Positions 2,988 through 38,935 of a stretch of 64,000 nucleotides of DNA are shown piece after piece (within the stretch, counting starts at the first letter, position 1; each line of letters starts with the position of its first letter). Made by a program: the position numbers and the translations under genes. The notes under the pieces are model-generated. The model did no database searches and was not told the origin of the DNA. It saw nothing but the letters and a program-made list of their open reading frames with translations. This stretch comes from Cyanidioschyzon merolae (taxonomy: Eukaryota). Where the stretch lies: assembly GCA_000091205.1 (NCBI GenBank), contig AP006494.2. The stretch is one strand, 5' to 3'.

Positions 2988-3509
2988 ATGCCTGCGCGTC
3001 TAGTCTGCGCAAGCTCCATACGTTCCCGAGGCTGGCTCACTGAGCCGCTGGGGAGGCTCGCTCAGCTCGTTTTCGTCGTGTCTGGCTTCTACGTAGGATA
3101 TGCTCTCGTTCTAAACCTGTTGGACTGGTTTGTACTGGGTAACGCAGGAGACCAAGGTTCTGTATTCGAGCGCATCTTCAACGCTGCGAGTCTGGGTTTG
3201 GAGAGCGTTCCGGCTATCGCGCACGCGTTGGCACTCAGCCTGGCTTTACTTTGGAGCGGCGTTCTCACTTACTATGTTGTGGATCGAGCTCGACAGTGCG
3301 TGGACTACACGACATCGCTCCTCGCATTTCATGTCATAGCGTGTTGGGCTAGCTTCGGTTTACCAGCTGGGCTCCTATGGTGGTGTTGGGTTTTCATGAT
3401 TGGAGGTGGTGCCGGCCTAGTCGCAACGATTCTCCGACAGCGCAAGGACCTAGCACCGATTGCCATTGTTACCGCTGAGAACGGACACAACAACATGGCG
3501 CTTCCGTAA
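2988..3509 (+). CDS. SYS1: SYS1-family Golgi integral membrane protein (4 TM)
   Basis: Collinear similarity to human SYS1, e.g. DRARQCVDYTTSLLAFHVIACW vs RRGKQCLDFTVTVHFFHLLGCW and LPAGLLWW vs FPSALTWW. The track start at 2961 is TTG; the first in-frame ATG is 2988. Single exon. Confidence 0.75.
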   Translation: MPARLVCASSIRSRGWLTEPLGRLAQLVFVVSGFYVGYALVLNLLDWFVLGNAGDQGSVFERIFNAASLGLESVPAIAHALALSLALLWSGVLTYYVVDRARQCVDYTTSLLAFHVIACWASFGLPAGLLWWCWVFMIGGGAGLVATILRQRKDLAPIAIVTAENGHNNMALP

Positions 3510-14194: not shown

Positions 14195-16530
14195 GAATCG
14201 TGACTGTAAATAGTTTGTGAAACGTGCTGGCGTATCTTTTCCCAAAACTAAGACAAAAGAACGAGGCAGTAGTCCTCTATGAAGCTAGCTTTCTCAGAGG
14301 CAACTGTCCGTAAAAATGCCAAAGCGTTTCACAGAATAGCTGGACTTTGGCGAAGGCTGCGACGCGAGTGCCGGCCATTCGCCTGGTACTGCCCTGGTGC
14401 GTATGCCGGAGGAACCGGTCTCCTTGACCGCAACTTTGAAACTGGGGTACGTGTGACCAAGACAGAGTGTTTCCGGCTAGAGTCGCGTTTATAAACGAAT
14501 GATTGCGTCCGTTGGAGCGTTTTAGTGCGTGTAGCTTCCCAAATCTGCTTGAAAGTACTAGGGCTCGGTTGCAGGTCACGTGGCGCAGAGCACCGGAAAC
14601 TTCAAATGTTCACGTCCAGCACACAGAGATCATTGATTTTGCAAGGCGTGACGCAAGATACGCAGCGTTCAGGGTTTGGAATGAAAACTGACGAAGTTTT
14701 ATACGGGTGTTTAAGAACGGTGAAAGCGTCGAAACAGGCGCGAGTTCGGAGCACGAGACTGCCTGGAACTTGAAGCGCTTCCTTCACTCGACGTGGGAGG
14801 AGGACTGCGGGGTCTCTGTGCAGAGACCTTTTCTCGTTTTACCTGTATTGGTAGTCTTTGAGCTACTGCGCTTTTAATGCGAGCGCGTTTTTGCCTTGAT
14901 GCAATGGGAGCAACGTAGTGCGGCTCTGGAGGAGCCTTCTGTTATCGTGTCCGAAACGATCGTTTTTTAACACACACATATCTACATGGAACGTGTTTCC
15001 GGATTGTTGCATTTCCTACCCTAGTAACAGAAATCATCGGACCTTTCTGCAGAGGCCTTTTCTCATCTTCTTTGTACGAGTGCTTGATCACTGAACACCT
15101 ATCCAGTTTGAGCGCGATACCCGATTGGCGTAAAGTTCCGGAACCTGTTACCACTTCCGAGCAAAAATAAATGCAGGGGTTCGCGGCTCACGCGCTCTCT
15201 TTAGGGTTCCGCTACGCAACTGCCATGCTTGCGACTAGACTTTATTGGACGGTACTTCGGCTTCAAGTACCGGGGCAACGCTTGCAAATTCGAGCTGCAC
15301 GGAGGCAAAACTCCTATGGTTGCGATGAAACTTTATTCGATGAAACGTCGGCATCGAGTGCCAGGATGCTGTCTGCATCCTCAAGTTGCTGGCACACATT
15401 TTGCACGTTCGAATATGAAACCCCGAGGTACGAACCAAACTAGGCGCCGACGCGAGGAGTTCTCAACGGAAAGAGCGGGCTGGGGTACTGCTCAAGTCTA
15501 TATTGTGCAGTAGCTGCTGTGCCACGATTACCATGAGCAATACCACAACCGTGGCTGGCACTGGGAAGGATGCAAACTCGGAACGCCTGCCCGGCACTCG
15601 GTGGGCGCCTATCGCGGCCTCGCACTCTAGCCGATGTAGGAACAATAGAGTCACCAGTTCGTTCCGGGCGTCCTCGAGAGCGCATCGCAACATGCTAGCC
15701 ACATGAGATTTGTGGGGAAGATGCGACATTCCGGGTGAGCCTGGCTGTGCAAGCGCGCTTTTACTCGCCTGGAACGAAGCGCGATGCTTGCCCTGCCAAG
15801 TAAACCCTTGGTGTATTTCCGGACCACCTTAGCCACGAATACTACGTCATGTGGATTTTGCGTTTCAGGCTGGGTATCTCTCGGGCTCGCAACAAGCGAC
15901 CCAAACGCAGTCAGTCTGCCGAATTCTCTGCTCACCGGCTCATGAGCGGAAACCGCACGTCCTTTTGGATTATGAGGAATCGACGCTCGCTGCTGCAGCG
16001 AGCCTGAAGCATCCATATTTCCGTATCTTCAAAATAAAGTTCGCCGCTTGTTTTTTTCTACGACAAGCGGAACCGGAATCGATGGGTGCTTAGGTCCCAG
16101 CGTCGCAGCACATCAGCAGCAGCACCGAACGCTCTGTGATCGTCCACGTCCATAATATGTTCCCAAGTTGGATGCTATTCGGCCCGTACATTGTGCCGGA
16201 TTCCATCATGATCCATCAACGCTGTATGTAACCAAAGCGTGCACCACAATTCCTGTTCGAGCGCTAGTTCGTACCAGATAGTCTAGACTGGTCGACCTGC
16301 TCCGAGCTCGATCCACAAACACGCCGTCTGCGACACCCCTTGCAAATAGCGCACCCAGATGGAGCAGCTTCGCGATACCCCGTCAAAGCGCCAACTCCAC
16401 CGCCATCACGAATGAAAACGCATCCACGCCCGCCTGCAAGTTCTAATCTTCGAAACTGTTGAACATTAATGCATGTTCTGAAAGACGCTGTGTGAGTTCG
16501 CTGTAGCAGTGAGATGTTTATATCGCTCAC

Positions 16531-16732
16531 CAGAACGTTTCCTGTGATCATGCATCCCAGAATGTACCATGAAGACTGGCATTCGGCAGAGCGTCCATCA
16601 TGTTGTACCCTACCTACAAGGTTCCATGACTCCGACATGCTCCCCGAAATACCAAGAGACTGCCGCTTGCGCTCAGCAGAACGTTTCCTGTGATCATGCA
16701 CCCCAGAATGTACCACGAATACTGGCATTCGT
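16531..16732 (+). repeat. 56-bp direct repeat (2 copies, ~93% identical, 145 bp apart) in the divergent DDX6/VPS13 intergenic region
   Basis: cagaacgtttcctgtgatcatgca[tc]cccagaatgtacca[tc]gaa[gt]actggcattcg occurs at 16531-16586 and 16676-16732. Confidence 0.7.
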
Positions 16733-16950
16733 GAACACTGAGCTGCATTGTCGCGCTTCCGCCAACGGTCGATGCGTACGAACGATACTGACGCGCGCAG
16801 CGCCGCCTCGGCGATGCCAACGATGCGCGCTGTTCTGGGCGGCGCGCGCCACCGGCGATCGCCACTCGTAACCAGATACGGCATACACGAACGCGACGAT
16901 TGAGGTGTGTTGGCTCAGAGGTGAGGCATACCACCGGGTTATAACGTTTG

Positions 16951-19280
16951 ATGCTGGCTCACTTTGTAGCCGAGCTTCTATCTGGAACGCTGGGTCAGTA
17001 TGTAAAGATCGATGAACGCCAAATCTCTGTGGGTATATGGTCCGGTCAGCTGGAGCTTCACGAGCTCCAGCTGGTACCTGAAGCTGTACAGGTGCTCTTC
17101 GAACGGGCTTGTGGGAGCGCTCCCTTCCATGTCCGTTCTGGTTATATTGGTCGAGTATGCGTTGAAGTGCCTTGGAAAACCCTGAGTTGGTCGCAACCCC
17201 TGCGCATTCAAATTGAAGACGTGTGCGTTCAGCTTGCGGCGCTACCGCCGGATTCCTGCTCGACCGAAGCAGCTACTCGGAGCCAACGGATGCAGTTGGC
17301 AGAGCTAGCAACAGACGCATCCTTGCGGGAAGCGCAGCTCCGAGCTTGGCTCATGGTATTGCGCGAGGCAGCTTCAGAGGCTGAGAACGAAATAGCCGCT
17401 AGGTTAGCCTCGGCTGCGCGAGCGCTCGCGGTTGATCCGAAATCGAATAACACCAACATCTCCGGTTGGCGGAAAAGACTCCTTCGTCAAGTCGTTGCAA
17501 ACATGCAGGTGCAAGTTGGGAATATATGGGTTATTTTCGGTATGGACGCGTCTGAGAGCGGCTCGTGCACCTCGCGAGGCGTGCAGCGTTCTGCAACCGG
17601 TGACGCCGACAACCGCTGCACGAACGGCAGCGGTGCCTCTGCGGCAGCGGCCAGCGAGGACCCAGCGCGTTCACGATTGGGAACGGTGCTGGAACCCAGA
17701 GAGGTGGATGCAGGGACTCGGGGGGTGAACGCACCAGCACCAGAGTCGAAACAATCGAACGCTGCCGCAGAGACGGACGCACCATTTTCCGTACAGTGTA
17801 ACGAATGTGCACCAGAAATTACCCATGAGGCATCGGAAGACTCGTTCACGAACGTCCTGGATATCGAAGCCAAGGCGGGAAGCACGCCAATAGGCGGACA
17901 ACGCTCTGAAAACATCCATGTTGACAGAACAGACGGCAAGAGCGTCCGTGGTGCCGCGCGAAGACCAGACCAGCGTAGCGACGAGCTGCTGGAGCTTGCC
18001 AGCGCGCTTCTCGATGTAGAATACTCGCCAGACGCTACGACGAGAGCGGTGACTCCCGAAGCGCACAGTTCTAGCACTGAACAGGGACGGTGCGATGCCT
18101 TGCATCCTGTAGCGCGGAACCTGTCTTACGCGGTACCTCCGGAGCCGGACGCTCGTCCAGACGACTTCTTGGACGCGTTCTCAGCTGTCGCTCAGGATGC
18201 GCGAACAACACCGGCAAGTTGCCGAGCAGCTGCCGGCGCCCAGGCGGTGCACCCGCACCAGTCCCAAGAACATATCATCGCACTGCACCTGTACCTCAAA
18301 GCATTCGAAATAGCTCCGATCGTAGATGCGTCGGGAGCCCCAGACACGTCGACCGTAGACTCGGACGTTCTCGCGAAACGCGTTGCATTTTCTGGTCTTA
18401 TGCTGTTGGCTGCGTGTGGTCTGAACGAGCTGAATCGGCCGCTCTTGAGTCACGAACCGCCGACGTCATCGCAACTCTCTGACGTCTGGGGCCTCTTCGA
18501 ACAGGTTCGGACGCAGTCGCAATCGGCGGAAGCGTCTGCAATGCTGTCGCTGGTTCTGGCGCCCCTGGAGATAACCATGCACTTGCGTCTCACTGGCGGG
18601 TTGCTCTCGCTCACCAATAGCGATCCCAGATCGGTATCGCAGCTGAACATCCACATTTCCGCCGTCAAGTGGCATCTGGAGCGCGAGCTCCTTGAGCAGC
18701 TTAGCCAAGTGATCCACCGGTGGACTCGCTGCGCCCCCCTGAACAGATCCCGAGGAGCATCGAGCCCTCGTACTCGCTGGTACGATACCCTCGAAGCAAT
18801 TCGACCCGGTTTTTGGCTCCGTCAGCGATCATCTAAGATGAGAAGGCCCGAAATCGTCCGTCGACGAAGAAAAGAACGCGAACAGTACGTCACCACTCGG
18901 TATCAGTCGCTCCTGAATCGCCTTCTGAGTCCTTCAGATCCACTATGGGCACACATCGAGCGCAAAGAGACCAACCCGGAGCTGTTGACGCTCCTCGAGC
19001 ACAAACTCAATCTCGAAACGATTCTATTTTACCGCCATCTGGCTGATCTGCAGGTGCTATGGCGACTGCGCAGCGCATGGCCTGCGAGCACCGCCCCGGC
19101 GGCGGCGGCGTATCCGGGAGCGCCCCCCGATACGAGCACGCACCCGATGCGTGATCGCCGCGGAGAGGCGCTCACCCAGGTGACGTGTCCCGTTGACTCG
19201 ACACGCATGCTGGGCGACGCGCTGCATCACGTACCAGCTGCGATCGCTGCTGCGGATGCGCGCGCACAAGGCACGCGCAA

Positions 19281-19316
<36 letters not shown>

Positions 19317-22300
19317 ACCAGCAGGCCTTTCAACGGTGGCCGGCTCTGGGAGCGATGGTGCAGCTGGGGTTCATCCCAGAAGCGCGGCTAGTGATCGGCC
19401 CGATGAATCGTCTCGCTGGCCGCTTCGGCTGATGAAGCGTCTGCGCTTAGCCTGGGCTTCGACTGCACGTCCACCGGCTTCAGGGACGGTCGTCCGCGAT
19501 ACAATCCATTCGAGAATCTCCGATGTCGAGGCCAGCACTGATGCAGAGCATCGTTCGGGAGGGAATGCGGATTGCACAGCGCACTTTTCCTCGGCGACGG
19601 CAGCAAAGGCTACAGGCGCGCTGCCCAGCGATGTTGCTACGCGGGCGTGTGTCGGCATGGTGGCTGTGAATCGAAGCACCTCGACGCTCTGGATGCCGTC
19701 TGTGAGTCCGTGGCATGTTGCGCGCTGGGCGGAGCTCTGTGGATACGACTACCCGCCAGTGACGAGTGCGGACGTTTTGACGTTTGCGTGCAGCACGGCA
19801 ATGTGGCCGTTGAGCGGTTCGCATGGGATGTGCACGGACCGGAGCGACATGCCAGGGGCTTTAGCAGCAGCTCGACGCGCGTCAAACGAGTACTCGTTGC
19901 CACCGGCGACTGCAGAGGAGGGCGCCGAGCCGTCCGCAACGGAAACGGCATCGACGACTGGTCGCCTTTGGGAGCTAACCATTCGTCTAGAAATGTTTCA
20001 GGGCGAGCTCTGGGAGGCCGCTGCGAACGGAACAGGCCTCATTTTGACAGCACAGGGCCTGGAGGGCACCTTCCGGGCACCGGATACCGGCAATCTTAGA
20101 CTGCAAACCTGTCACCTGGACTTTATCCAGGGCAAGGAGCGCTGGGTGCTGCTTCAATGGCAGCAATCGACTTGCAGCACGCTGGAGAGTTTGTATTCGA
20201 ATCGATCACATGCGGCGGTAGAACCTGCTCCAAGAGGAGTCAAAGCGGCAGCGACAACAAGTGCAGCACCAGTAGGCTCACTAGGTCCAGAGCCCGAAGC
20301 TGAAACAGCATCTTCTGCAGCAGCGGAAGCGGAAGCGTTAAGCACTGCTCGCACCGACGCTGGACCGGTTCTGCAGGTGCGGATGCAACGACGCCGGTTG
20401 CCGCCTCTGGACGCATTTCGAGAGTCAGGGGTTCTTGGTGGCTCATCTGTACAGGACGGAGGTGAAAACTTCAGCTCTTCGTCGTCGTCGTCGTCTTCTG
20501 CCGAGACACCAAACGATGCAACGCCAACAACTAACGAGTCTTGGAAACGCGCTTTGCAGGTCTCACGGGGTATCTTCGCAGCGGAGCTGCTCGAGGAGCC
20601 CGACCTACGTGTCGCAGGCGGCTGGGCCGAGTCCGCGATGTTGACTCCAAAAAGTAGCTGGTTGTTCCAGGTGGTGCTCCAAGCCCCAGAACTCCGTCTC
20701 TATGGACAGGCACCGCTCGTCGAATGGATACAACGTTGGCGACTTTTGGGCAGGTCCTTGGTGTCGCTCGAGGAGACGTCCAGACGTCGTTTTAGGTGCA
20801 GGCGTGCAAGTCGAGTGCAGCCTCATGTGGAAATGAAGCCTTGGATTGACGTTACCTGCCGGATAGAGAGGCCATCGCTCTCGGTTTGGGAAGCGAAACC
20901 GCGGGCGGCGCTGCCGGAGAAACCACTGCTGCGCCTCAGCATCGAGAGCGTGACGCTTGAGAGCGGTGCATCGGCACAAGCTACATCGAAGATTGCGGCA
21001 AAGTCCATGGAAAATAGCTCTGCAGCACCACTGAATTGCCAGGAAGCAGCACTGTCCTCTGCAGCGACTGGACTGGGATCGCGGCGGCAAGAATGGCGTT
21101 GCGTTTTCGAAGCGCTTCTGTTGCAACATCGACACCAGCATCCAGACCAGTCGCTGTTGACGCTGACTCGCGTCGCAGTCAGTTGGCTTAACCGAGGTGC
21201 GCACACCGCGGCAACGCGCACGACTCACCCGTTCGGCTCGTTTTCACTGCCGATGTTTTCGTCGTCACCGTCGTCTTGGAGAGTCTCCGGTCGATCCGGT
21301 ACCGACGTCGACGGTGGCATTGTCGATACCTGCTTCCTGGTGCTGGAAACGTGGCAGATTCACTTGACACCAGCCGCTCTGGAGGCACTCGAGACCACTG
21401 CTCTGTCGCTACGTTGCGCTCAGTCAGTATCCACAAGTGGATGCGCCATGACAACGATCTCGCAAACGCCCACGAGCACTGCAGCCCGGCACGCTGCTGA
21501 GCATCCGGAGAAGCAGGCCGAGTCGCAGACGTCCCGTTCCATTCACAGCCGAGGATGGCGCGCTTCAGCACAACGGACTGGGCTCTCGTTGAACGCGCTC
21601 AGCGGCACGCAACGGAGACGTCGCCGGACGCATATAAATGCGCAGCTCGCTCGGGGCAAAGTGTACCTGCATCTTTTGGACAACCAAGCGACGACGATAT
21701 CCGCGTATGAGTGTATTCTGGAACCGGTGCGGCTTCGAGCTGACTTGGACGTTGCCATTCCCGAGTCGACCTGGCTCAGTGGCCAGCATACCGGTGCACT
21801 GAACCGGGTAGCCAGGGTCCGTGAGAGCGACCACAAGCTTCATGTGTATTGGGAACTCGACACTGCAGGATTGTGCTTCCTGGGTCCAGTTCGGAGCGGT
21901 TATTTGCGGCTCGAGGGCATGCACTGTTCAGGCGCATGGCGAGACTCGCGTGAGCATCCCGGATCGGGAGTCTTGGAGGTCGGCATCCAGCTGCGGACGC
22001 TTGCAACCAATATGAACGGCGAAGATGGGTATCGCCTCGCGGGTGCTTTCCGGCGTCGTTGCGGACTGGAGCGTTCGGATACCGTGGAAGCTTTCCCAAC
22101 GGAAGCAAACTGGAGTCAGCAGCAGCAGCAGCAGCAGCAGCAAGACCTGCAACGATCAGCGTCTGGGCAGGTGTTGGCGAACAAGCGCGCTCCGCGTCGC
22201 CAACTGGAGCGTCAGCCGATGCATGGATCCGAGGCGTCACTGACAAGTGCATCGGTTGCAGCTCTAGGTGCTACTCGTGAACTTTATTCCAGTCCACAGA

Positions 22301-25300
22301 AGGTGTCGATGGCCGCTCGTGGTGCCAGCAGCGGAGCGGCTGCCTCGATCGGTAGTTCATCGACGACACCGGGCGCGTATGCCGACACCATCCCAAGAGA
22401 AGATGAAGTAGAAGATGGAGAATATCAAGACACGGACGTTGCGGGTTCCTCTCTCTTTCGCTTTATCCAGATACGTTGTGACGTCACAGATATGGTGCGT
22501 GTTCACGGAAGCAAACAAGAGGCTCCGGTCGTGCGACTCGAGGCTCGTGGCTTCACGCGAATGCAAATGAACCTTGCGCTAGCTCCTTCAATGCCGGCAC
22601 TTGTGCGCGTAGCCGGTTGTCTACAGGGCGCAGACCTTATTTATATGGGCAAAGATGCGAACCAGACACTTGTTCTGGGGCGTTTTCAGCCCAAGGCATC
22701 ATCCGATTCATCTTGGGATGATCGCTGGCAAGCACAGGAGCTGTGGCTGGCGAACGCGCCTCTCCCGTGCGATGATGATCCCGAGGACGCAGCGGGAACG
22801 CCACCACATCCAAATGCTCCGGAAGCTGCAGCTGCTGGGGCAAGTCGCGACTTGAAAATCCCGAATTCGCCAGCTGACCGGGACTCCACCGCTCTATGGA
22901 CTAGAGCGCGCAGTATGCCGGCTCGTGACGCCGAACCCGGTTCTGCAGCTGCTTTCGCGACGGCACCTTCGCCCTGCAGCGCGACAGATGCCGAGGCCGA
23001 ATCTGTGCATCGCCTGGAGCAGACTGACCTACACCAGGGCAATGCACCTGCAACGAGCACCGGCATGCTCACAATTGCCGCTGACTTGGAGCATCAGTTC
23101 ATGGAGACGGAGCACCTGGTACCTTCCTTGTCTTGGCGCTTTGTCCAGCAGACCGGTGCTCGGACGGCATTAGTCCATTTGGGTAAGTTGGACGGTGTCT
23201 ATCTCCACGGCTATTGGAAGCGACTCATCCCCGAAGTGGATGCTTTTCTGCAATCTTTTGTACCGGACGGGCCACCGAGCATGCCCTCGATCATTGAGGT
23301 TCGCCTCCATCGACCACTGTTGCGCTTTCCTGCAGGTCTTGCGTGCAGCGCTGACGAAGCGAATGCCCTTCATCTCCGCTGCGGTGGTACGTTGACCTTC
23401 CGCCGACGCACTTGTCCGAAAGAGACGCAAGGGAACCGAGCACCAGCTGCGACCGAGGCTACTTGTTCAGCTGGCGTCGTCGAGGTTGAGCAACCGCTTG
23501 TGCACTCGTCGTCGTCGTCGTCGTCGTCTATGTTGGTCGACACTGTACAACAGCCGCTAGCGCAGCAGGAGCCGAATCAACGCGGCGCTGACGCGGGCGC
23601 TTTGGTAGCATCCGACAATATCGACAACGACGACGACAACGACGATGACAGCGTTCCGTGGCACCTGGAGTCCTTCACGGACCTGGAACTGGTCACCGTG
23701 CACCTGGGCGGAGACCTGCACCAGATCGGATCGGTGGAGCACTGCCGGCTGTGGATCACGGAAGACGAGGACACGGGCTGTTCGCGCTTCGCACTCCAGT
23801 GCACAGGCGATGTGGAAACTTGTATCTGCGAAGCAGACTATGGCCCGTTTTGGTACATCGTCTGGAATAACCTGAACAGCGACGTTCCCTGTCAGGAATG
23901 GGGCATGCGGAATCCAGCAGGAGCGGGTTTTGTTCCATCAGGCACAGCCGAACGCGGTGAGCCCTCATTATCGTCGTCGCCTGCGTCGCAGCTACCGCAT
24001 TCCACAACATCGAATGGCAACGCATTTGAGAGCACCTGGACAAACGCCGCCGAGCTTCTCGATCCGTTGCTGTATCGTTTGGAGGTTTTCCTCCCTTGTT
24101 GGCAGGGATTCTGCAGTCACGGCGATAACCCGAGTGACGAATCGACGCGTCTGGTGTGGTTCCAGCTGAATGAGGTGCACCTCAGTGCCGATCTGTGGGG
24201 CTCTGGCGCCTATGCGACGTTTTTCTCCGCAACGTCGCTACGCATCGAAGACGCGCGATCTTTGATGAAGGCTGTTTCCCCGTTGTGGCCTTTGGTACGT
24301 GATGCACCCGGTTTGATCGAAGCATCCAGAACGAGCGACAAGCACCGCCAGAGCGCCAGGCAGAGTTCGCTATCCCCGGTACCCGACATGAGCGAGGAGG
24401 CGCGTGCGCGCTGTTCGCGACTGCTCCTGCGCTATCGACGCCAGGCACCAGACCAGAGGGGTGACCAGCTCACACATATCGCCATGGATCTACGATACCT
24501 CGAGATGCTACCGGTTGCGCAGGTATTGCGATCGCTTTCGTTCCTGGCGACACCCTTCGGGAAATTCGAAGCGATGAGCAGCCCAGTGCCGACACTTGCG
24601 TCTTGTCGTCGGCGAGTCGAACGAACCCAGGCCGTCGTCACCTGTTCGGACTGTAGCGTCGTGTTTCCGGCAACACTGGCGGCACTTACCAGTCAAGAAC
24701 AGGATGTCATGGAAGCACAAGGTGATGTGATGTTGACCTGCACCTGGCAAACGAATCCCTCGCAGTTTCATTACGAAATGTTTCTGGATCACTTTCGACT
24801 CTGCATGAAGCGATACGACCCGTGTCAAAGCCGAATTCCGCCACACGACAACCGCCTCGTCTCTGGTGTCCGCACGACATCGACTCCAGGCGCTTCAGAC
24901 TCGGAGACGAACGCGGACGGTTGCGTGCTGCAGGCTGCTACACTCACCAGTACCAGTGCCAACAGCAATACAAGTGCAGTGCCGGACGCTGTCGGTGCCG
25001 AAACTGGTACTGGTGTTGGTGGCGGAACGCTTGCGCCCTCAGTGGAGCTCGTCTACCCGTGCGCCATTCGGATGATGTACATCGATACGGGTGATCCGGA
25101 AATTCCACCCCAGTTCGACCTCTCGGCGGCGATGTTGCTGATGCGCTTCAGTCAACAGGATCTCGTGCTGATTGCCCAGATTGTGGAGGCATATCGCCAG
25201 CACCCGCACGAGGTTACCGACTGGGAACGCCTTCTCTGGCACGATGAAGCGGCCGGGGCTGCAGGGGCGCGCCCTCCGAGAACAGGGAGCGCTCACGCTG

Positions 25301-28300
25301 CTGTCGAGCCAGGGGCTATCGAGCATGCGACGCCACTTCAAACTCGACTCGCGTCTAGTATGTCGCATACGGAGGGCCGGGTATTGTCGGCACTAGCGCT
25401 GGAGTCGACACCAGGTCCTGCGGTTGGAAATGAGGCCGCATCGCAGCCGCTGACTGCGCTGAATGTTGCTGCTTCTGGCACTGGCCGGCATCCAGGGCGC
25501 AACGACGACGACGACGACGACGACGACGAACATGGATCGACACCTGGTACGAGCAGGCGATCCACAGAAGCAACCGAGAATCCCTCCAAGGTGCCAGCTT
25601 CGACGTTGCCAGAGGCGACGAATCTCGAAACGGCATCTGCATGGCATCGCTGGGTCAGTGGACGGACGCGTTCATTGCCTACCATATCCCCAGAGGTGAT
25701 CGAGGCCGCACTGCGTTCCGCCGAAGCACCCAGCGGCACGGATGCTGCTAGCACCTTGCAAGCGACTTGGCGACGTCGTGCTGGACGCATGCACCGACGA
25801 CTGGAGACGATAAGCGGCGCGATGCCTGCAGCAGCAGCAACAGCAACAACAACAACAACAACAACGACCACCACTGGTGCGACTTCAGCAATACACCCTG
25901 AATCGGCTACCAAGCATACAAGCAACACCACTGACAAGTCTTCGTCGACGACGAAGACAAAGACGCGGATCGAGGCCCGCTCGTCTGCCGAACGGCTTGG
26001 CGAGGCAGCGCAGGCGTCGAGCACGCCTCGTGCCGCTGCTGGTGCTACTTCATCATCAACATCAGCACCAGCAACCAGAGTGCGTTCGCTGCGGATTACC
26101 ATTCAGGTTGATACCCTGGTTTGTATGCTGCTACACGAGGACGCTTGGAGCCAGCCACCGAGTGCATCGATGAGGCCCGGGGGCCGCTCCTGGTATCAGG
26201 CAGTGATAGCGAATGAGGTCAACGCAAGCGAGTCGCCTATGGTCAGCTACCTACCCACGGTCGTGCTCTATGGCGCATTCTCGGTACAGAGTCGGGAGCC
26301 GGCAGTTAGCGATGCACAAGGCGCTCTCTGTATCGATATCTTCAATGACTATTTGGGAGCGTGGGAGCCTCTCGTGGAACACTGTGCTGGCTGTCTGCAA
26401 TGGAATGAGCAGGAGCTGCCGCTCACCGGGGAAGTGTCAGAGCTCGGCGCTGCAGTGCGCTCGACAGGTGCCAGCGCGGACACCGGCACTGCTGCACCAA
26501 GTGCCGGTCTGCGTCCTCGACATCGACTATGGCATCTGGTTGTCGCTGACGCCCTCGAGATGAATATCAGTGAGGCCTTTCTACCGGCGCTCGATAGACT
26601 GGCAAAGGCAGTGGAACAGATCGTACACGACTGGCGTGCATTGGCGACGCAACCGAAAGCAGGTCCCGAGACGCCAACCAGCACGGTGCACTCGCCATCG
26701 ATGGCACTGCTACCAGTATCCGAAGCAGCGCTGGTGACAAGGTGCGTATCCAGCGAGATGGATCATCAGGAAGCACCTGAAGACGTTGGAATAGCAGCAG
26801 CAGCAGCAACAACAACAACAACGTCAGCAGCAGCGCCAAGGAAAATCGATGTACAGGAAGCCGGTGAATACGCTGCAGCATCCGGAAGAAACAAAACATC
26901 ACGCGACAACGGCGATGCCCCTGACAGAACGGAAGCGGCTGCCGAATCCTCATCTCACAGCGTCTGGCTGCCGGAGACCAGGCAGCAGCCGAATGCCGGA
27001 CCTGGTGTGCGTCGTCACCCGCGTCCAACGTTGGCAGCCCTGGTGATTCACAACTGTACCGGTCTACCTTTGCTGATAGAATCGAAAGCGTTGCGAACAC
27101 GTAAGCTTGCACTGAGCTCTATGGCTGTCGAGGTGCGGCTCACCGATCTCTACACGGATACGAATCTCGAGTCGTCGGAGCACTTCCAGGCCTGGCGCTC
27201 GCATTTGACAAAAATGCTCGATACATTGCGCGCTTCCGCAGCAAAGAACGTTTTGTTTCCCGGCAGCGCCAGCTCTGACGAACTAGCAAAGAGCACCGCT
27301 TCGGGCGACGGAGCACGCGCAACACGAAAGCGTTCCCCCGACATGCGCGTGAACCGGAACGCCGCTCCCGAGCCGATGGGCACTGGCCTATTTCGACCGC
27401 TTGCTGCGGGTCTTGCGGATTGTGTACTGCGGATCGCTGGCTTTCATCCGGTTCGCGTGAACACTTGTCATTTCGGCACACAGACCTACACGCTGGAACC
27501 GGACACGAGTGCATCGGGCCTCGAGTTGACCGCTGCCTCCGCAGAGTGCTTGCGCTCATGTACCCTGATATGGGAACTTGGTGTCCTGAATGGAGCCATC
27601 ACGGGGGTGGCACGTTCCCTGCTTCGTTTCACGAACCAGCTTCAGGTCCCGCTACAGATTCGCTACGAAATGGCCACGCCAGCGGCAGCGCTTATCGATT
27701 GGTCGCGGAGCCTGCATCCGGGAGCAGTTGCGGATAGTCCACGGGTGGCGCTTTTGGCACCCGGCGAGTCGTGGTCACCACCGCTGCTGGCGCGCCTGGA
27801 TCGGCTGCAGGTGCGGCCCTGGTGTCGCCGGTGGTGCTTGCCGGTACCCGCGACGCAGTCGAGCGCTTCCCAGGGGGCAGCTGACGACCCCAGAATCGAG
27901 ACCAGTGGCCACCTGTCAGCTGATCAGTCGCTCGATACCTCCATCACAAGTTCCTTTGGTGACTCGGAAGCGACCTGGTCGGCACCGTTGCCAGACGTGA
28001 GCACGCTCCGGATGCTGGTTGCCGAGTCCTACCAGCGACGCAAGCGCATGCGTACCGTCGGTGCCGCTGCCTCAGCTTCGACCGCTGGAGGTGCGGCGGA
28101 AGTGCTCATGGCGCAGCAACGCTCGAGTTTGTTGACGTTACAGGGCGCGCGGCTCGGTTCACTGCCGTTTCATGTGGACTTGATTCCCCGTATCAGCTCG
28201 TATGCACGCTTCTCGCCAATGCAGCACGACTGGGTGGATTTGTGCTTTCGAGCGCCGCTGGTGCTTGCCAATCTGTTGCCAATAGCGGTCGTGATTCGGC

Positions 28301-30628
28301 TGCATCGTGCTGGAAGCAGTACACCACTGTGGACGAGCGGGATACTCGCGGCCGGTCAGTCCGCTGCCGTCCATATAACCCGTAGTCTGAACGGACTATT
28401 TTTCTCGGTAGCTCTGGTGCATCTCATCAACACGAATAGTGCCTTGGCATCTGATTTGGCCGTACAGCGGAATGCGCCCATTTCCCGAGAATGCGACGAC
28501 GCTCCGGACGAGACAGCGGACTCACGCTATTCCACGGACTCGGAGCGAGTCGACGCTGAATGCATCTGGTCGGAGCCTATACGTTTGCCACCGAAATGGC
28601 CCTGCGAGGGCTCTTTTCTCTGCCCGCGCGTGTTCGACTGGACCATGCTAACGTTCGAGGGTACCTGGGAGACACCAGCTCTGGATCCGCATGCGGTTAC
28701 GGTGCCGGTGGCGAGCCAGCGCCTCCAGCTCTCCGCGAGCTGCTGGTTACAAAATCGCTCTGACTGTGCGCTCTGCATTGATCCGGGGTTTGTCGGGGAT
28801 CGTCTGCCCACTAGAGGTCTCACTCAGCGGCGAAAAGCAAGCGCCCTGCGTCAGCACGCCCGGGAGCGCAGTTCTGGCGCCGACTCGATCATGTCCGCCA
28901 AGGCGAGCATCGACAGCGAATCCACAGCGGCAGCGTGCGCCCCGGACGAGCGCTTCATCCTCCTCAATGCCTGGATCGAAGGCCAGGTGCCGGAGCCGTA
29001 TCTTCCGCTCGCTGTGCAGAGCTTTCGTCTTGCCGTCATTGAGCAGCAGCTGGGAACTTGGTCAGATCCGATCTTCGTTCGAGACCTGGATCAGGTACAG
29101 GTGCTGAACCTGCCGGAACGAGTTCTCGTCCTGAGTAGCCGCCCGGTGAGTGATCCTTTTGGGAACAGCCTTGTTCTGAGCATTCATAATGTGGCGCGGA
29201 TTGTGAATCGCACGCCACTTCCCTTTGAATACGTCCAGACGCTGCAGCATTTGCACGTAGAGACGCTTCTGGAAGGTCGCCCGTCCGCCACCGTTGGCCA
29301 GGTACACTCGCTAGATCCTGGTGCAAGTGCCGCACTACACTGGGAACTGGCGGATATGGAGCGGCATGGCGTATTACGCATCCGACCCGCTGGCGATGCG
29401 CTGCCTGCAGTGGCGAAGGCTGGCACGCGAGTCAGCGCTGGTGACGCAGCTGGCGGCCTGCTCCAGCGGACAAGCGCGCGCGTGAAGGCGCACACGCCGA
29501 GCGCATCTGCCGCTGCCGACGCAGCAACCTGTTCACAGCAGCAGCAGCAGCAGCAGCGTCGACGTCGCCATTCTCCAGCAGCAGCGCGCGTCCCTGAGGA
29601 TGCCGACTCGCCAGCAGCGGCATCTGGACGAGCACCCTCGCCGTGGCTATGGAGCTGCGGGATTCCCATCGGCATGACAGGGCATTACGCACTGAAACTG
29701 TACCGTCCCGATACGCTGCACCAGTACATCGCGAAGCTGAGTTTGCAACCCAGTCCTGACGGTGTTTGGATGGTGATTTTGGATCCCGAGGATCCCGAGC
29801 ACCCGCCGATGCGTCTCCAGAATATCTGCACCCGCTACGCTGTTGCATACCGTCAACTGGACGCGAGTCGGCGCTTTTGGCTGCTGCGTCCTGGTTACGC
29901 AGCACGCTACGCCTGGGATAATCCCTTCACGTTTCCCAAGTCCCGTCGACTATTACTGGAAGTCGAAGAGACGCGATTCGCCTTGGCTCTAGATGGACTC
30001 GGGGAATGCGTCGCTGTCCTACCCCTTGGGCCGCACTGTCCGTCGTTGCAGGTTGCCATATCCTTGGATGGTCCGACCAAGGTCATTACACTGTACGATG
30101 ATCGCGAGATTTTTCATCTCTTTCGTCAAGGTATCGTAGCGGATGCACTTTTGGTAGCACGCGCAGCGGCCCAAGCGACTGGACGTGCACAAGCGGCAAC
30201 AGCGCCGGTACCGGTCGCGCTGTCGCACCGCCGCCCTTGGCTGATGCGGCAACAGAGGCGCAGCTCTTTGCGTTGGTTTCGCCGCTACGGCTTTGTGCGA
30301 CCCAGTTGGCCCGAAGAGAATGAGGTTGACTCAGATGCCTTCCAGCACTTGGATTTCTTCTTTGAGCTTGAGCGGATCGGGGTGTCGTTTCTGACCATGG
30401 AACCGGCCGAATTAGCGTATTTGACCTGTCATCGCTTACGTGGCGGCTATACTACGGATTACAAAGGATGTGCGCTGGAAGTCGGCATCGAACGCATCGA
30501 ATTGGATGATCAGCGCAGCAGCTGTGTACATCCCAAGGTTTTGCGTGTGCAGCCACAGCGCCTGAGACCCTCACATGCCGCTGAATCGACAACCAGCGCG
30601 AAGGACGATAGCGCAGCGGCATCAACGA

Positions 30629-30674
<46 letters not shown>

Positions 30675-31241
30675 GACAAGAACTGCAGTGCCTAGGGAAC
30701 CAGCAGACGCGCGTCCATCGCTCTCGCGTGGCCGCGTGTCTGCTGCAGAGGAAGCTCTCTACCCAGCGCTCTATCTATCCTTCGAGCTTGGAGCGCCCTA
30801 CAGCGGCGACGTATGGAATGTTCGCTTCGGTTATGTGGCGCTTCAGACCATCGAATTATGCCTCGAGGAGGGTTTCATTCGTGCAGCCTGGCCCTTTCTC
30901 CAGTTGCTTGTCGCCAATGACGTCGACGAGCCCGAGCACGCTGTCACTAGAGACATCTCGACGGTGCCGCCAGCGTCCGCATCCGAGCCCGGCCGTCAGA
31001 TCTATTTCGAATACCTGTTGGTGAACCCGCTGACGCTGCGTGTGAGCTTCTTCATCAGCCCTATCGCATCGCAATCTGCTGAACAAGACGTCCCTCCATA
31101 TGCACGCTCCGTGCCGAGTGTGCAGTTGACGCCCTTGAACGAAATCCATGGATCACGCTTCCGCGCCGGTAACGCAACGACAGGCGCTGGGCTGGAATTC
31201 GATACCCCTGACGCAAACTCTCCAAGCACGAGAGACGCAAC

Positions 31242-31292
<51 letters not shown>

Positions 31293-34200
31293 CGCACAAC
31301 CGGCCCCGTCACATCCGGCGAGCGATGGTGCATTGGTACTGGCACCTGAGCGAAGCTCCGTAGAGACGGCTCCTGCTGGAAACCGACAGGCGTCGCCAGA
31401 GCGTTCCAGACAGCACAGTCGTGCACTCGACCGAGGACGGGACGCCAGTGACACGTTTTCGGCATCTGCCTCGGCAGCGGTGCAGCACTCGCTGAGTCGT
31501 CGAATTGGCTCTGGAACAGGTGCGCTCGCTGGGGGCCATGTCTTGCACACAGGCTCGGAGCAGAGCGTTCGCCTGGGTGGCGGCGGAAATCGTAGCGTTC
31601 GCGGGTACCGCACCATTCTACGTCCATTACTTGCAGCACTGGGAACCGTCGAAGATGCATCGCTCAGTGCGCGTGCGCTCCTCCTGGAACATTATCTGGA
31701 TTCGGTGGGTCACTGGCTAGAGTTCATCCAGGAATTCTATCTGCTGCAGTTCAGGGCGTCGCAATTGCAACTGCTAGCATCCAGTGATCTGCTGGGCAAT
31801 CCGACGCGTTTGCTTGATTCGGTAGCAGAGGGAGTTAGCGAGATCTTCGAGACACCGCGCCAAGCAACCTCCAGTTACGACCTGTTGCTGCGCCTCAGTC
31901 GCGCGAACATGGGCCTCTTCACCAACTCGGTGCGGGGTCTCTTTCGGACTGTGTCGGCGGTCTCTGCGTCGTTGTCACGCGGCCTCACTGCCATGACCGG
32001 TGACTCGCAATATATTCAGAAACGCGAGGAACGCCGACGGGATGCGCCGAGTTCTGTAGCCGGTGGTCTGCGCAAAGGACTCGTCTCTTTCGGCTATGAA
32101 ATGCGAACCGCGGTAACCGGGCTGGTACGCGAGCCGTACCGTGGCGCACAGGCGGGCTCGGTTTCGCGAGGCATTCGCCGCGCTCTCGTGCAGGCAGTAA
32201 TCCGCCCTGCGAATGGTTTCCTGGACCTCATCATGCATCCAGCAGCGAGCCTTGGTGCTCGTCCACATTACCAGCGTCTGCCGGCCGGGAGACGGGTCCG
32301 GCCGCCGCGCTGCTTTGGACCTGGCCTTCGACTTGTGCCCTACTGCTTCGAGGATGCACAAGGCAACGATCTATTGTGGCGTCTGTTGGTGCGCAAAGCG
32401 ACCTCATCGGCGAGCGACCCGTACCCGAACCTCGAGTTCTACGTGGGTATGGTCCGCGTAAGCGCGTCAGCGATCTACGAAGCAGCACCTCCGCAGAGCT
32501 CGACTGCAGCAGCCACTCGCGCCTTTGCACTGGAGCGGCTCCCATTGGGGCCGCGTTACGGTGTGGTGCTCGTATCCACCGAGTCCATTTACGGTCTCGT
32601 GGTTCATTCCGAGCGTCCGAGCAAATTTCAGTCCATCTGGCAGGTTCCCTGGTCGGAAGTGGTGCAGGTTGTCGAGAGCCTGCCCGCGAGTCCCGCCGTG
32701 GTCAAGGTACTTCATTCAGCAGCACCATCATACCATCGTTTTTGGCAGCGCATTCGCAATCGTTATGCGATGGAGCGGGTTCAGCGGCTCAGCGAAGAGC
32801 TCGAAAAACGCCAGGAACGCGTCAAAGCTACAAAAGCTGCCGCGACGCCAGCCACTCCACGGACAGCGGCTCTGGCGCGCAGTCAGCGCAGTGCAGCGGT
32901 GCAGCAACTGCGCATCGAGTGCGCGTCCATTGCTCAGCGGGATGAATTGCTTCAGATGTTGCGGCAAGTGTTCTGTACGGTTGCCCGTGGCCGACTGTTG
33001 ACGAGTCAGGCGTCAATGGCGCCACCGTCGCCCGGTTGCACGTTCCGTCTGGACGCTGCCGGAAAGCGCGAAACCGAATCGCGTCCTTCTACGGACGCTC
33101 TATCGATAGCAACCGTAGCTGATCAGCATGAACGGAGCACGCTCTACTCCAGCGGATCGGCAAAGCCTCGTGCCGCGAATACGAATGTATCCAATTTTAA
33201 GAGCGGGCTGCCGCCGGTGGCCAGTACATCGGCACCGCCACTGGTGCGCTCAGGCCGGGTAGAGTCAGAGCCAGATGCACCGGAACCGGGCTCGATTTCT
33301 GCCGGCATTGCCGACGTTATGAGCTCGGAAAACGCCCACGGACTGTCCGCGAGCAGTGGCAGGTCGGATGGTGAGAGCCTCAGTCCAGTGGTGCGCGTGT
33401 CAGCGTGCGCTACTGCTTCCGTTGCGGGGCCAGAGCGGGGCGTTGCAGCCGAATGCTCCGCACAGCCGCCAATTGAGACACCAACCTGGTACGCGCTGGA
33501 CAGCTCCCAGCCGCCGCTTCCATTAGCGGAATCGACTGGCGGGACGGGGGTCGCTTCTGGTGTTGTTGGAGTCCCCGTCGCGAACACAATGGGATGCGTG
33601 ATTGAGAACCGGTCCGACACAACCTTTGTTCTGGTTTGGCAGTATCTTGATGGAGGATTCTTCCTGCAGGAAGCGCCGCCAACGATCTATGCGCAATCAC
33701 GAGCGAAATTTGTGATCTACCGCGCGGCACAACCGCCCAAAAGACGGTCACCGTTGCGGCGGCAGCGGCAACGTCAGCTGGAGCAACATCTGCCAGCAAC
33801 GTCGTTCGAGTCCGCTGCCATTGCCACTGGAGCGTTCGCAGCGCCCGGTGCAGTGCGCGGTTCCAGCGACGTAGCGCCGGACATGCCTCGAAGCTCAGAT
33901 ACGGCGCTCGTTCCTGAGCAGCATTTGCGTGCTCGTCAGGTGCAGCGGCAGCGGCGTCGCGACCAGCTGGGCCTGCGAAAGCTCTCTGGCATTATCCTGT
34001 ACGCATTGGCAGATCCCGATGACCAGCAAGCGATCTACGATGAGCGTCGCTGGATAACGCTCGAGTTTGGCGTTTCGCGTCGTGCGGTGCCGCGCGCGCA
34101 TGTGCGCTGTCCACCGCCCATGGTCTCGACGCTGCTATTCCAGCGAGCGGCGAGTGCGCTGCAAATGCTGTGCGTGCTTGAGGCAATGGAGACGCCAACG

Positions 34201-35013
34201 AAAACGGATCGCTCGACAGCGTCATTGCCGACGTCAGGGGCGCTGAGCTCATCAGCTGCTGACGCCGCAGGACGTGCTTCAACGAGCTCGGAACGGAGTC
34301 TCCGTTGGCGAAAACGCAGCCCTGCGGCTCGGAGAGAGAGGCTGCAAAATGCCCGAATAGTTGCATCGGAGGCGGCGGTTCAGAGCCATCACGACGCTGC
34401 TTCAGTCTTGTCGTCGACTTCGTCTGATTCCGACGACATTGATGTGGAGAGGAGTGTCCTCGAGAGCTATGAACCCAGCACGATTATGGGGCCGCCCGAG
34501 TCGCACAGCATGGCCACTCGAGTGGCCGCGTCTGACGACCCGGTGTTGCCCGCGCCTGCAAGTCGCGAGCCCGAGGCGTCAAGGCCGCGTTCGCGCAGCC
34601 ACTCGCGCCCCGGAGAGCGCCTCCGATCATGGCTGAGACGGCGCGGCGCTGCTGGAGCCTCAGCCACTGTCCCTAGCCGGTTGGATAAGCTCGCAAATAC
34701 CCAATCGGCTCGTGAGGGGACTGCGACCGCCGGCCTTTCGCTGACGGCGTCACAGGCGTTGACCACAGCAGCATCCCCGGACTGCACGGCACTGAATTAC
34801 GAAAAGGGTGTCGGCGAGCGTGAGCCAGACCTCCAGCGACAGTGTGACCGCGCACTACAAGCGACAGCAGCTGTAGAAGAAACAGAAGCAGATGAAGCAA
34901 ACGCGCGGGCTCCGGAGGGTTGCACCATCCGCGTTGCTGCCGAGGTTCACAGTGACTCTGAGGACGGCTATTTAGACGCACCACTGGCACTCGAAGATGC
35001 CGACCCCATGTAA
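16951..35013 (+). CDS. VPS13: VPS13-family bridge-like lipid-transfer protein, 6021 aa, single exon
   Basis: The N-terminus is a clear Chorein-N domain (MLAHFVAELLSGTLGQYVKIDERQISVGIWSGQLELHELQLVPEAV...VEVPWKTLSWSQPLRIQIEDVCVQLAALPP). The ORF is continuous. The track start at 16948 is TTG; ATG at 16951. It is interrupted by many in-frame low-complexity runs (polyA, polyQ, polyT, polyD, polyS). Confidence 0.85.
31243..31290 (+). repeat. (CAG)16 encoding polyQ inside VPS13; representative of several in-frame trinucleotide microsatellites
   Basis: Others in the same CDS: (GCC)n 19281-19316 (polyA), (TCG)n 20477-20497 and 23506-23528 (polyS), (CAG)n 22117-22143, 29534-29557 and 30632-30673, (GAC)n 25504-25529 (polyD), (GCA/ACA)n 25831-25870 and 26790-26823. 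All preserve the reading frame. Confidence 0.9.
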
Positions 35014-35143: not shown

Positions 35144-35345
35144 ACACGCATGCAATGATGCTGTGCTGTCCCGAATGCATGCAGCTACACGCATGCAATG
35201 ATGCTGTGCTGTCCCGAATGCATGCAGCTACACGCATGTGATGATGCTGTGCTGTCCCGAATGCATGCAGCAACACGCATGTGATGATGCTGTGCTGTCC
35301 CGAATGCATGCAGCAACACGCATGCAATGATGCTGTGCTGTCTCT
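35144..35345. repeat. 43-bp minisatellite, ~4.7 copies, unit acacgcatgcaatgatgctgtgctgtcccgaatgcatgcagct
   Basis: Perfect or near-perfect tandem copies start at 35144, 35187, 35230, 35273 and 35316. Units contain the palindromes gcatgc and atgcat. It lies between the convergent VPS13 stop (35013) and the GT31 stop (35824). Confidence 0.9.
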
Positions 35346-37760: not shown

Positions 37761-37945
37761 AAAGCAGAGAGTGAAACGAAATGGAGTTGAAAGGCTTCAA
37801 TCTGAGGCTGTTGCGAGAACGATTTCGTCCAGAAGCCCGCAGATGTGCGGTCGCGAGCGCGTCTGATCATCGTGTGATTTTCGCGGGCTCGGTTCACGAG
37901 GGCTTCGCAGCGTCCAACCCATACGTAATCGGTTTCGCTTGTCAT
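37751..37945 (-). pseudogene. Solo Fanzor/TnpB-like tail remnant with degenerate RuvC-III (VNRARENHTMIRR, catalytic D lost) and QP-tail (KSFSQQPQIEAFQL)
   Basis: Aligns with FVNRDVNAAINFSRYAV...YKFLLQPLRLDV (6848-7360) and LNRDLNAAINIRRCAM...ANFIGQPLKVEL (54752-55000). Confidence 0.4.
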
Positions 37946-37981
37946 CTTATTTTATACTTGCATTCAGAAAGGTACGAAACC

Positions 37982-38935
37982 ATGTTTGTAGCACTCTCTG
38001 CGAGTATTTTTTCTGCTCGAACAAGAGAAAATTGTCGTTCGTTTGCTACGCATCAATATCGCTACCGTCTTCGCCGTTTCTCTACCAGCCATTCGTCACT
38101 TGGAGTCGTCTGTGCGCGACTGGCGACTGACTGGGAGCGTGCGTTGCCACCGCGTCGTCTTGTTGGCGACTGGGAGCTTAAGCGGGAGCTGGGGCGCCCA
38201 GATATGGACTTACGTGTACTGGTCGGTCTGCGTCAAGAGTCGCGAAACGAATCGATTTTCGGTGTGCTCATTGGCGTCGTTACTCTCGCTGCATTTGCCC
38301 CGGCTCTGGCACAAGCCAGTTCCGTGCAGGGCGCCCAACAGCTCCAGAACGTCGCCGCTGTGGTTTCTCTAGGCGGTATGGGTGCCTGGGCATTCGACAC
38401 GCTCGCGCTCCAAGGGCGAGTTGCCGCCTGGCTGCAGAAGCGCTGGCTCACTGACCCAAAACGAATCGCCGTGCACGAGGCTGGACACGTGCTATTGTCA
38501 CACGTTCTCGGATACGAGTTAGAAAACTATTCACTGGGGCAAGACCGCACGAATCTGCTGGCTGGAAAGACGGGTGTTGTACTTACCGAAGGCCTACGAG
38601 CGCCGACGTCAGGCCCGGTGTCAGCGAGTGAGTCGTTTGCGCTTCTGTCAGTAGCAGGCATTGCTGCTGAGGCAATTTTCTTCGGGGATGCCGAGGGTGG
38701 CATGGAAGATCTGGCCACCTTGTCTCGATATTTTCGTCGTACAGAGCCCTTTTTGAACGCAGATACGCAAGCGTCTGTGCGATGGGCCATGTTGGCCGCA
38801 CTTCGTATCTGTAACATGCATCGCGCGGAGTTAGAGCAGATCGCCGAGGCGCTACTCCTGGGCAAATCAGTGAAGGAATGTGCAGAAATAATTTTTAGGG
38901 AATGCCCGAAGCCACTCGCGGAGCTTGCGCAGTAG
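37982..38935 (+). CDS. Peptidase M41 (FtsH protease-domain-like) membrane protein lacking an AAA ATPase module; probable organellar presequence
   Basis: HEXXH zinc motif in IAVHEAGHVLLSHVL and an FtsH-like C-terminal protease block (LSVAGIAAEAIFFGDAEGGMEDLATLSRYF), with one TM (IFGVLIGVVTLAAFAPALAQ). There is no Walker A/B. The ATG at 37982 gives an MFVALSASIFSARTR...RRFSTS transit-peptide-like N-terminus. An alternative ATG at 37781 would overlap the antisense Fanzor remnant. Confidence 0.6.
   Translation: MFVALSASIFSARTRENCRSFATHQYRYRLRRFSTSHSSLGVVCARLATDWERALPPRRLVGDWELKRELGRPDMDLRVLVGLRQESRNESIFGVLIGVVTLAAFAPALAQASSVQGAQQLQNVAAVVSLGGMGAWAFDTLALQGRVAAWLQKRWLTDPKRIAVHEAGHVLLSHVLGYELENYSLGQDRTNLLAGKTGVVLTEGLRAPTSGPVSASESFALLSVAGIAAEAIFFGDAEGGMEDLATLSRYFRRTEPFLNADTQASVRWAMLAALRICNMHRAELEQIAEALLLGKSVKECAEIIFRECPKPLAELAQ

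Follow-up and report, generated by a model that had tools for sequence, protein, structure and literature searches.

The VPS13-family proteins of red algae include a Rhodophyte-specific class, VPS13R, in which a beta-sandwich, with or without a UBA domain, is found after the PH domain (Leterme et al. 2023; PMC10683392). The UBA is optional in the definition of this class, and the domain preceding it was labelled only 'beta-sandwich' and likened to that of VPS13B (PMC10683392). A stretch of 64,000 nucleotides from contig AP006494.2 of the red alga Cyanidioschyzon merolae (GenBank assembly GCA_000091205.1), referred to here as the window, was found to carry at positions 16951-35013 an open reading frame (ORF) of 6020 amino acids (aa), which very probably represents one intact, intron-less VPS13-family gene with the VPS13R architecture and with a length that comes from its linkers.

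Giant members of the family were described by Levine (2022) from Chlamydomonas (7192 aa), Plasmodium (9307 aa) and Toxoplasma (13455 aa), and the length of the Toxoplasma protein was attributed to more repeating-beta-groove (RBG) units and a longer groove (PMC7613979). In a sister family, length variation is driven by disordered loops (PMC7613979), and the sequence length of VPS13 proteins does not track the number of RBG units (PMC10683392). The hallmark of the six-module VAB (adaptor-binding) domain is an Asn in each repeat (PMC10683392), and the topology of the VAB modules is lysin-like (PMC8978259). In Plasmodium, the PH domain of PfVPS13L1 binds the HEPN-like domain of a separate protein, PfAegerolysin (Guillen-Samander et al. 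2026; PMC13036008). The aegerolysins, to which Cry34Ab1 is assigned, bind membranes and recruit partner proteins (PMC9505663).

Results

The frame runs on the plus strand from the ATG at 16951 to a stop codon at 35013; the ORF scan gave a TTG at 16948 and the ATG at 16951 as the upstream in-frame starts. From the base composition of the stretch, ln P for 6020 codons without a stop is about -197. The ATG at 16951 was taken as the start because the alignment of aa 1-128 with the N-terminal end of Vps13 from Chaetomium thermophilum begins at residue 1 (PDB 6cbc, E=2e-10). The order of modules is Chorein-N, a block-and-linker region, a six-repeat VAB, VPS13_C/ATG_C, a PH-like region, a predicted aegerolysin-fold beta-sandwich and a tail with an FFAT-like motif, as follows.

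16951..35013, plus strand: complete single-exon coding sequence of the giant VPS13, 6020 aa and stop
16951..17583, plus strand: Chorein-N and first RBG unit, aa 1-211, with Pfam, PDB and profile matches
17584..27012, plus strand: pre-VAB region, aa 212-3354, conserved hydrophobic blocks (presumed RBG strands) alternating with long variable linkers
27013..29985, plus strand: VAB (adaptor-binding) domain, aa 3355-4345, six repeats
29986..31554, plus strand: post-VAB region, aa 4346-4868, conserved blocks and linkers with A13 and Q16
31555..32376, plus strand: VPS13_C/ATG_C-homology region, aa 4869-5142, the most conserved part of the protein
32377..33006, plus strand: PH-like region, aa 5143-5352, assigned by position
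33586..34185, plus strand: predicted aegerolysin-fold (Cry34Ab1-like) beta-sandwich, aa 5546-5745, split by a basic loop
34423..34473, plus strand: acidic motif SDSDDIDVERSVLESYE, aa 5825-5841, conserved relative to the two giant orthologues
34948..34986, plus strand: putative FFAT-like motif HSDSED-GYLDAPL, aa 6000-6012, 14 aa from the C-terminus

With aa 4821-6020 as the query, an exhaustive phmmer search disclosed two proteins, 5609 and 5604 aa long and 51% identical to it, both matching up to query residue 1085 (aa 5905 of the ORF). The former is the orthologue from Cyanidiococcus yangmingshanensis (GenBank accession number KAF6003551), found in a second assembly as KAK4531217 (5613 aa), and the latter is a cyanidialean orthologue from a third lineage, present in NCBI, JGI and Logan data. 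In a full-length alignment with the two giant orthologues (labelled P0032 and P0033), the C. merolae protein is colinear with the proteins of 5604-5613 aa from residue 1 to the C-terminus, with 38% identity and conserved blocks throughout. Two metagenome loci from separate assemblies (L001 and L002) maintain a single frame from the same ATG to the end of the locus, over 5952 and 5947 codons, respectively. These loci differ from the window by 16 insertions or deletions, each of a length divisible by three; 15 fall in homopolymer tracts. The only one outside such a tract is the loss of SDKHRQ (aa 2462-2467, nt 24334-24351) in L002, which falls within an otherwise conserved block. Additional metagenome fragments with about 99% identity differ only at polyA (13 versus 6 or 9), polyQ (16 versus 9, 10 or 11) and A5 (versus A3) tracts. 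The ratio of non-synonymous to synonymous substitution rates (dN/dS) between strains was 0.23 and 0.28 for the conserved blocks and 0.68 and 0.70 for the linkers.

As the orthologues are colinear, the frame is unbroken in independent metagenome assemblies and the indels are in frame, a fusion, a mis-assembly and hidden introns are excluded. A first-pass annotation of this DNA had described a single-exon gene of 1.5-2 times the usual VPS13 length, and had proposed either a genuinely giant protein of this lineage or a fusion or mis-join with downstream sequence. The description as a single-exon gene of this length was upheld; of the two proposals, the colinear orthologues of 5604-5613 aa in related genomes and the frames intact in two metagenome assemblies uphold the first and refute the second.

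The predicted protein is assigned to the VPS13 family on the basis of its Chorein-N, VAB and VPS13_C/ATG_C regions. The Chorein-N terminus had been recognised in the first-pass annotation, and the domain scan revealed that VPS13 modules run from end to end of the protein and are not confined to a sub-region. Pfam VPS13_N matched aa 1-193 with E=1.9e-18, its score of 66 bits being below the whole-model cut-off of 80 bits since 162 of 1317 profile positions match. A profile built from the three orthologues matched the N-termini of normal-length VPS13 proteins with E=1e-26 to 1e-35. The same profile of the three giants was colinear with normal-length VPS13 proteins at aa 1-211, 534-790 (about 260-490 in the relatives), 3490-3785, 4224-4340 and 4869-5142. 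The blocks at aa 3490-3785 and 4224-4340 fall in the Pfam-significant VAB of the relatives, and within the VAB that Pfam defines in two Galdieria proteins, P0036 and P0035 (the latter from Galdieria phlegrea), blocks of the profile aligned with independent E-values of 3e-13, 2e-24 and 1e-26. The invariant Asn of the six VAB repeats was located at N3368, N3562, N3774, N3935, N4086 and N4291, with a spacing of 151-212 aa, and is retained in both orthologues. A phmmer search of PDB with aa 3201-4820 returned only a polyQ/low-complexity artefact.

The VPS13_C/ATG_C stretch was matched by 1457 proteins in the exhaustive search, and aa 4876-5143 aligned with human VPS13A (E=1.5e-20) and with residues 3364-3622 of the 3777 of VPS13C (E=1.3e-18). 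About 870 aa lie beyond ATG_C and comprise the PH-like region, the aegerolysin-fold domain and the tail; this extension, missed in the first-pass annotation, is typical of the lineage. The PH-like region is 59-74% conserved in the orthologues, and its AlphaFold2 (AF2) model displays strands and a terminal helix with a predicted local distance difference test (pLDDT) score below 50.

The beta-sandwich at aa 5546-5745 is split between two strands by an Arg/Gln-rich basic loop of about 75 aa (aa 5601-5672, positions 33751-33966), which occurs only in the Cyanidioschyzon/Cyanidiococcus clade, and for which AF2 gave two helices of moderate to low confidence. In the relatives the domain is compact, and at least 20 of the closest ones carry a version of about 120 aa in the corresponding place, among them Galdieria phlegrea, where a UBA domain comes after it, and both VPS13 proteins of Porphyridium purpureum. 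Searched alone, the C. merolae beta-sandwich gave nothing relevant in PDB or Pfam, a three-sequence profile of the PH and beta-sandwich regions gave no relevant match in PDB, and the link to aegerolysins emerged only with the wider domain family. An initial AF2 model (aa 5101-5760, three sequences, mean pLDDT 39.9) contained an all-beta domain that pointed to Cry34Ab1 and was regarded as a hint only. The second model, with eight sequences, had a mean pLDDT of 78.6 and values of 90-97 in the core. A profile of the domain from 17 relatives had a single match in PDB, to Cry34Ab1 (4jox), over its full length and with E=1.3e-11. The relatives' profile recovered the domain of P0035 with E=1e-17, found it also in the Porphyridium proteins P0054 and P0039, and aligned with the domain of the Cyanidioschyzon clade by hhalign (probability 93.9%, E=1.5e-7) across the insertion of about 75 aa. 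Thus, the domain following the PH-like region is best described, from profile matches and predicted fold, as a distant aegerolysin-superfamily domain, a label chosen because it is below threshold in Pfam yet its family matches Cry34Ab1 at the E-value given above.

The last 275 aa or so are mostly variable and contain two conserved features. The acidic motif, which reads SSESEIDLETSVIESYE and SESGADIEVSVIESYE in the two orthologues, may be a short linear interaction motif. In each of the three orthologues the FFAT-like motif lies exactly 14 residues from the C-terminus, with the cores GYLDAPL, SFFDVAE and NFFDVTE each preceded by an acidic or Ser-rich flank, and it is a putative FFAT-like ligand of VAP. 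Its placement at the C-terminus is unusual; the functional FFAT of Plasmodium VPS13L1 is N-terminal (PMC13036008).

Close relatives are shorter: the nearest one from Galdieria is a protein of 3666 aa, and the lengths of the others are 3700-4400 aa. Measured against a relative of 4032 aa, the excess of the C. merolae protein amounts to about 1100-1250 aa before the VAB, about 200-350 aa in the VAB, about 180 aa between VAB and ATG_C and about 370 aa after ATG_C. The conserved part of the protein consists of about 35 blocks, which sum to about 3040 aa and are 35% hydrophobic. The variable segments (about 2980 aa) are 20% hydrophobic, contain 17% Ala and much S, T, R, G and P, and often show gaps between the orthologues, while the strictly low-entropy share of the protein is about 10%. 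By a crude count, there are 34 amphipathic beta-like segments before the VAB, versus 31-37 in relatives about 1100-1450 aa shorter. The approximately 2000 extra aa are probably weakly constrained linkers, about 35 in number and rich in A, S and T, that form disordered loops, as judged from composition and conservation, and this reading fits the published statements on length (PMC10683392, PMC7613979). As the Galdieria relative has only 3666 aa, the expansion is considered independent in the Cyanidioschyzon/Cyanidiococcus clade.

The linkers contain the following trinucleotide arrays, most of which vary in length between strains.

19282..19317, plus strand: A12, (GCC)11GCA, length-polymorphic (A11 and A6 in environmental strains)
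20473..20499, plus strand: S9, TCG-type, microsatellite
22117..22143, plus strand: Q9, (CAG)8CAA, length-polymorphic (HQQ insertion in L001, seven additional Q in L002)
23506..23529, plus strand: S8, (TCG)7TCT, length-polymorphic
25504..25527, plus strand: D8, (GAC)8, microsatellite
25846..25875, plus strand: T10, ACA-type, length-polymorphic
26794..26823, plus strand: A5T5, (GCA)5(ACA)4ACG, length-polymorphic
29536..29556, plus strand: Q7, (CAG)7, length-polymorphic
30634..30672, plus strand: A13, (GCA)13, length-polymorphic (6, 8 or 9 in other strains)
31243..31290, plus strand: Q16, (CAG)16, length-polymorphic (9, 10, 11 or 15 in other strains)

All the repeat arrays reported in the first-pass annotation are present and in frame, although (GAC) has 8 units and not the 9 reported, and (GCA)13 was absent from its list. 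Variation of the repeats in length across strains, named there as a point to check, was confirmed in L001, L002 and the other metagenome fragments. Conversely, its proposal that polyA, polyQ, polyD, polyT and polyS insertions are the source of the excess did not hold: homopolymer runs of at least 5 residues, all 12 of which lie in the variable part, sum to 107 aa, or 1.8% of the protein. As the total is so small, these tracts cannot explain the extra length, which lies in the rapidly evolving linkers, where hydrophobic residues are few and A, S, T, R, G and P are abundant. The microsatellites are best read as young passengers in the loops, and both would be largely neutral.

Near the VPS13 gene, the ORFs at 37781-38935 and 43403-45196 correspond exactly to BAM80750 and BAM80752 of Cyanidioschyzon merolae 10D. 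The neighbouring genes lie on both strands and are of ordinary eukaryotic housekeeping type: a DEAD-box helicase, a Fringe-like glycosyltransferase, GDP-mannose pyrophosphorylase, the E2 component of branched-chain 2-oxoacid dehydrogenase, ORC5, eIF5B, SYS1 and a prenyltransferase alpha subunit. Rfam and tRNA scans of the whole window detected no RNA family and no tRNA. About 130 nt past the VPS13 stop, in intergenic or 3' sequence that precedes the opposite-strand Fringe-like gene, there is a 43-bp tandem repeat (35144-35342, 4.6 copies, 96% match, unit ACACGCATGCAATGATGCTGTGCTGTCCCGAATGCATGCAGCA). On the other side of the gene, a minus-strand ORF of 206 aa (16264-16884) has its end 67 nt upstream of the VPS13 start; it had no Pfam match at E<=0.001, and the same applies to the ORFs at 59986-62718 (plus strand, 910 aa), 54997-56391 (minus strand, 464 aa) and 41818-42570 (plus strand, 250 aa). 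Between 52000 and 58000 there is a strong negative skew, which reaches -0.17 for GC and -0.18 for AT, and this segment spans the minus-strand eIF5B gene (50895-54692) and the uncharacterised minus-strand ORF at 54997-56391.

Discussion

The size of the ORF might be accounted for in ways other than a single VPS13 gene lengthened by its linkers. If a normal VPS13 had been joined in frame to unrelated downstream sequence, by fusion or by assembly mis-join, one would expect what is indeed seen at the C-terminal end, namely that human VPS13A and VPS13C come nearly to their end at a point beyond which this protein continues for about 870 aa, and that Pfam is blank over this stretch. The continuous frame, however, is found also in two metagenome assemblies, two Cyanidiococcus assemblies and a third lineage, the C-terminal extension is conserved up to its last 14 residues, its folded domain also follows ATG_C in the normal-length VPS13 proteins of Galdieria and Porphyridium, and the extension agrees with the published VPS13R architecture (PMC10683392). 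A join of this kind is therefore exceedingly improbable, and was ruled out by the colinear orthologues, the metagenome frames and the presence of the domain after ATG_C in the relatives. The other way to shorten the protein is to regard the linkers as unrecognised introns or untranslated spacers, which would leave a true protein of about 3000-4000 aa, and the weak constraint on the linkers (dN/dS about 0.7) and their composition, unlike that of the blocks, would suit this proposal. Against it, about 2980 linker codons contain no stop (ln P about -98 from composition), none of the 16 strain indels breaks the frame, and orthologues with 38% identity keep the linkers in frame. Introns are very rare in C. 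merolae, and an intron-less gene is normal there. Given the stop-free codons, the in-frame indels and the frames of the orthologues, the intron proposal was rejected and is scarcely credible.

A different question is whether the extra residues build a physically longer bridge with additional RBG repeats, as proposed for the 13,455-aa VPS13 of Toxoplasma. There are about 1100-1250 extra residues between Chorein-N and VAB, and several variable segments of the pre-VAB region are 25-35% hydrophobic and could be fast-evolving strands. Yet most of the excess is in poorly conserved, gapped segments with 3-25% hydrophobic residues and a dN/dS of about 0.7, and the number of beta-like segments before the VAB, although a crude measure, equals that of shorter relatives; the published mismatch between length and RBG number (PMC10683392) and the loops of the sister family (PMC7613979) point in the same direction. 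A longer bridge was hence considered unlikely, and disordered linkers remain the preferred source of the length. As for the beta-sandwich after the PH-like region, it might instead be a displaced seventh module of VAB type or a discoidin-like sandwich of VPS13B type. This assignment is rather improbable, and the seventh-module version of it was rejected in favour of the distant aegerolysin-superfamily domain.

Some observations weigh against the reading adopted here. Expression over the full 18 kb is inferred from frame conservation alone, and the linker dN/dS of about 0.7 comes from few substitutions (about 35-42 non-synonymous and 18-22 synonymous). Taken alone, the protein matched the Pfam VAB directly with E=0.0018, below threshold, and the three-sequence VAB profile had no match in PDB. 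No sequence match to a PH fold was obtained in PDB with the three-sequence profile or in Pfam. The Pfam Aegerolysin family (PF06355) did not match the domains of the C. merolae clade, and reached in P0036 only E=0.048 and 14.2 bits, below the cut-off of 22. Moreover, the count of beta-like segments is a noisy proxy, as composition shuffles gave about 21-25 versus the approximately 34 observed, and some of the excess may add RBG units and lengthen the bridge.

On the basis of established VPS13 biology, the conserved hydrophobic blocks would form a repeating-beta-groove rod along which lipids could slide between two apposed membranes. The Chorein-N end would face the donor membrane, usually the endoplasmic reticulum, while the VAB, the ATG_C helices, the PH-like region and the aegerolysin-type domain would dock the other end on the acceptor membrane, with the aegerolysin module possibly acting as a direct binder of membrane or lipid. 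The linkers would project from the rod as disordered loops, so that the polypeptide is lengthened and the bridge is not.

The finished and published genome, giant VPS13 proteins of 7-13 thousand aa and the VPS13R class were already known, and the protein is in these respects an ordinary member of its family. It offers nonetheless a clean natural case of a VPS13 probably inflated by about 2000 aa through disordered linkers and not through added domains, and this took place in one of the most compact eukaryotic genomes, with microsatellite slippage still visible between strains. One detail worth passing on is that the beta-sandwich hallmark of VPS13R can now be named as a putative aegerolysin (Cry34Ab1-like) domain, and aa 5546-5745 constitute a defined, testable unit. 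The fusion and the Plasmodium report would together provide independent 'Rosetta-stone' evidence that VPS13 C-termini work with membrane binders of aegerolysin type. A bolder suggestion, which we hold to be possible but doubtful, is that this partnership is ancient and general, being in cis in red algae and in trans in Apicomplexa (PMC13036008). If true, the fused domain would recognise or locally perturb the acceptor bilayer and thereby let lipids leave the bridge. This cis/trans partnership could be examined in a simple system, as the cells of C. merolae possess a single organelle of every type and are amenable to gene targeting.

Among the closest known systems is VPS13R, and the protein is placed in this class by its domain architecture, because the beta-sandwich after the PH is the published signature of the class. 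Like its members, it comes from a red alga and has Chorein-N, VAB and ATG_C followed by a beta-sandwich past the PH position; the same domain is in the same place in the VPS13 proteins of Galdieria phlegrea and Porphyridium purpureum, and the best non-orthologous matches are proteins with this post-PH domain. It differs from these relatives in being about 1.5 times longer (6020 versus 3666-4996 aa), in the basic loop of about 75 aa that splits the sandwich and in the FFAT-like motif at its C-terminus. Pfam detected no UBA in aa 4001-6020 of the C. merolae protein at E<=0.1, and one is present in the Galdieria proteins P0035 and P0036.

With the canonical VPS13 proteins (yeast Vps13, human VPS13A and VPS13C) the C. 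merolae protein shares the N-terminus, ATG_C, the six Asn-marked VAB repeats and the order of modules, but it has about 2000-2900 more residues, nearly all of them in linkers, and adds, past the PH position, the predicted aegerolysin-fold domain and the tail of about 275 aa. As in the giant VPS13 proteins of other protists, the polypeptide has been greatly lengthened in a protist lineage; unlike the case of Toxoplasma, the evidence points to loops rather than to more RBG units. The aegerolysins, such as Cry34Ab1 (4jox), OlyA6, PlyA and RahU, are small stand-alone proteins, whereas here the fold is predicted as a domain of a cytosolic protein of 6020 aa, sub-threshold in Pfam and carrying a 75-aa insertion. 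Finally, in PfVPS13L1 and PfAegerolysin, as predicted for C. merolae, the C-terminal end of a VPS13 is associated with an aegerolysin domain at the acceptor membrane; in Plasmodium two proteins are involved, whereas the C. merolae protein has the aegerolysin-type domain in cis, past the PH position. By analogy, the red-algal fusion may be regarded as the in-cis counterpart of the Plasmodium pairing, and the two may perhaps be functionally equivalent.

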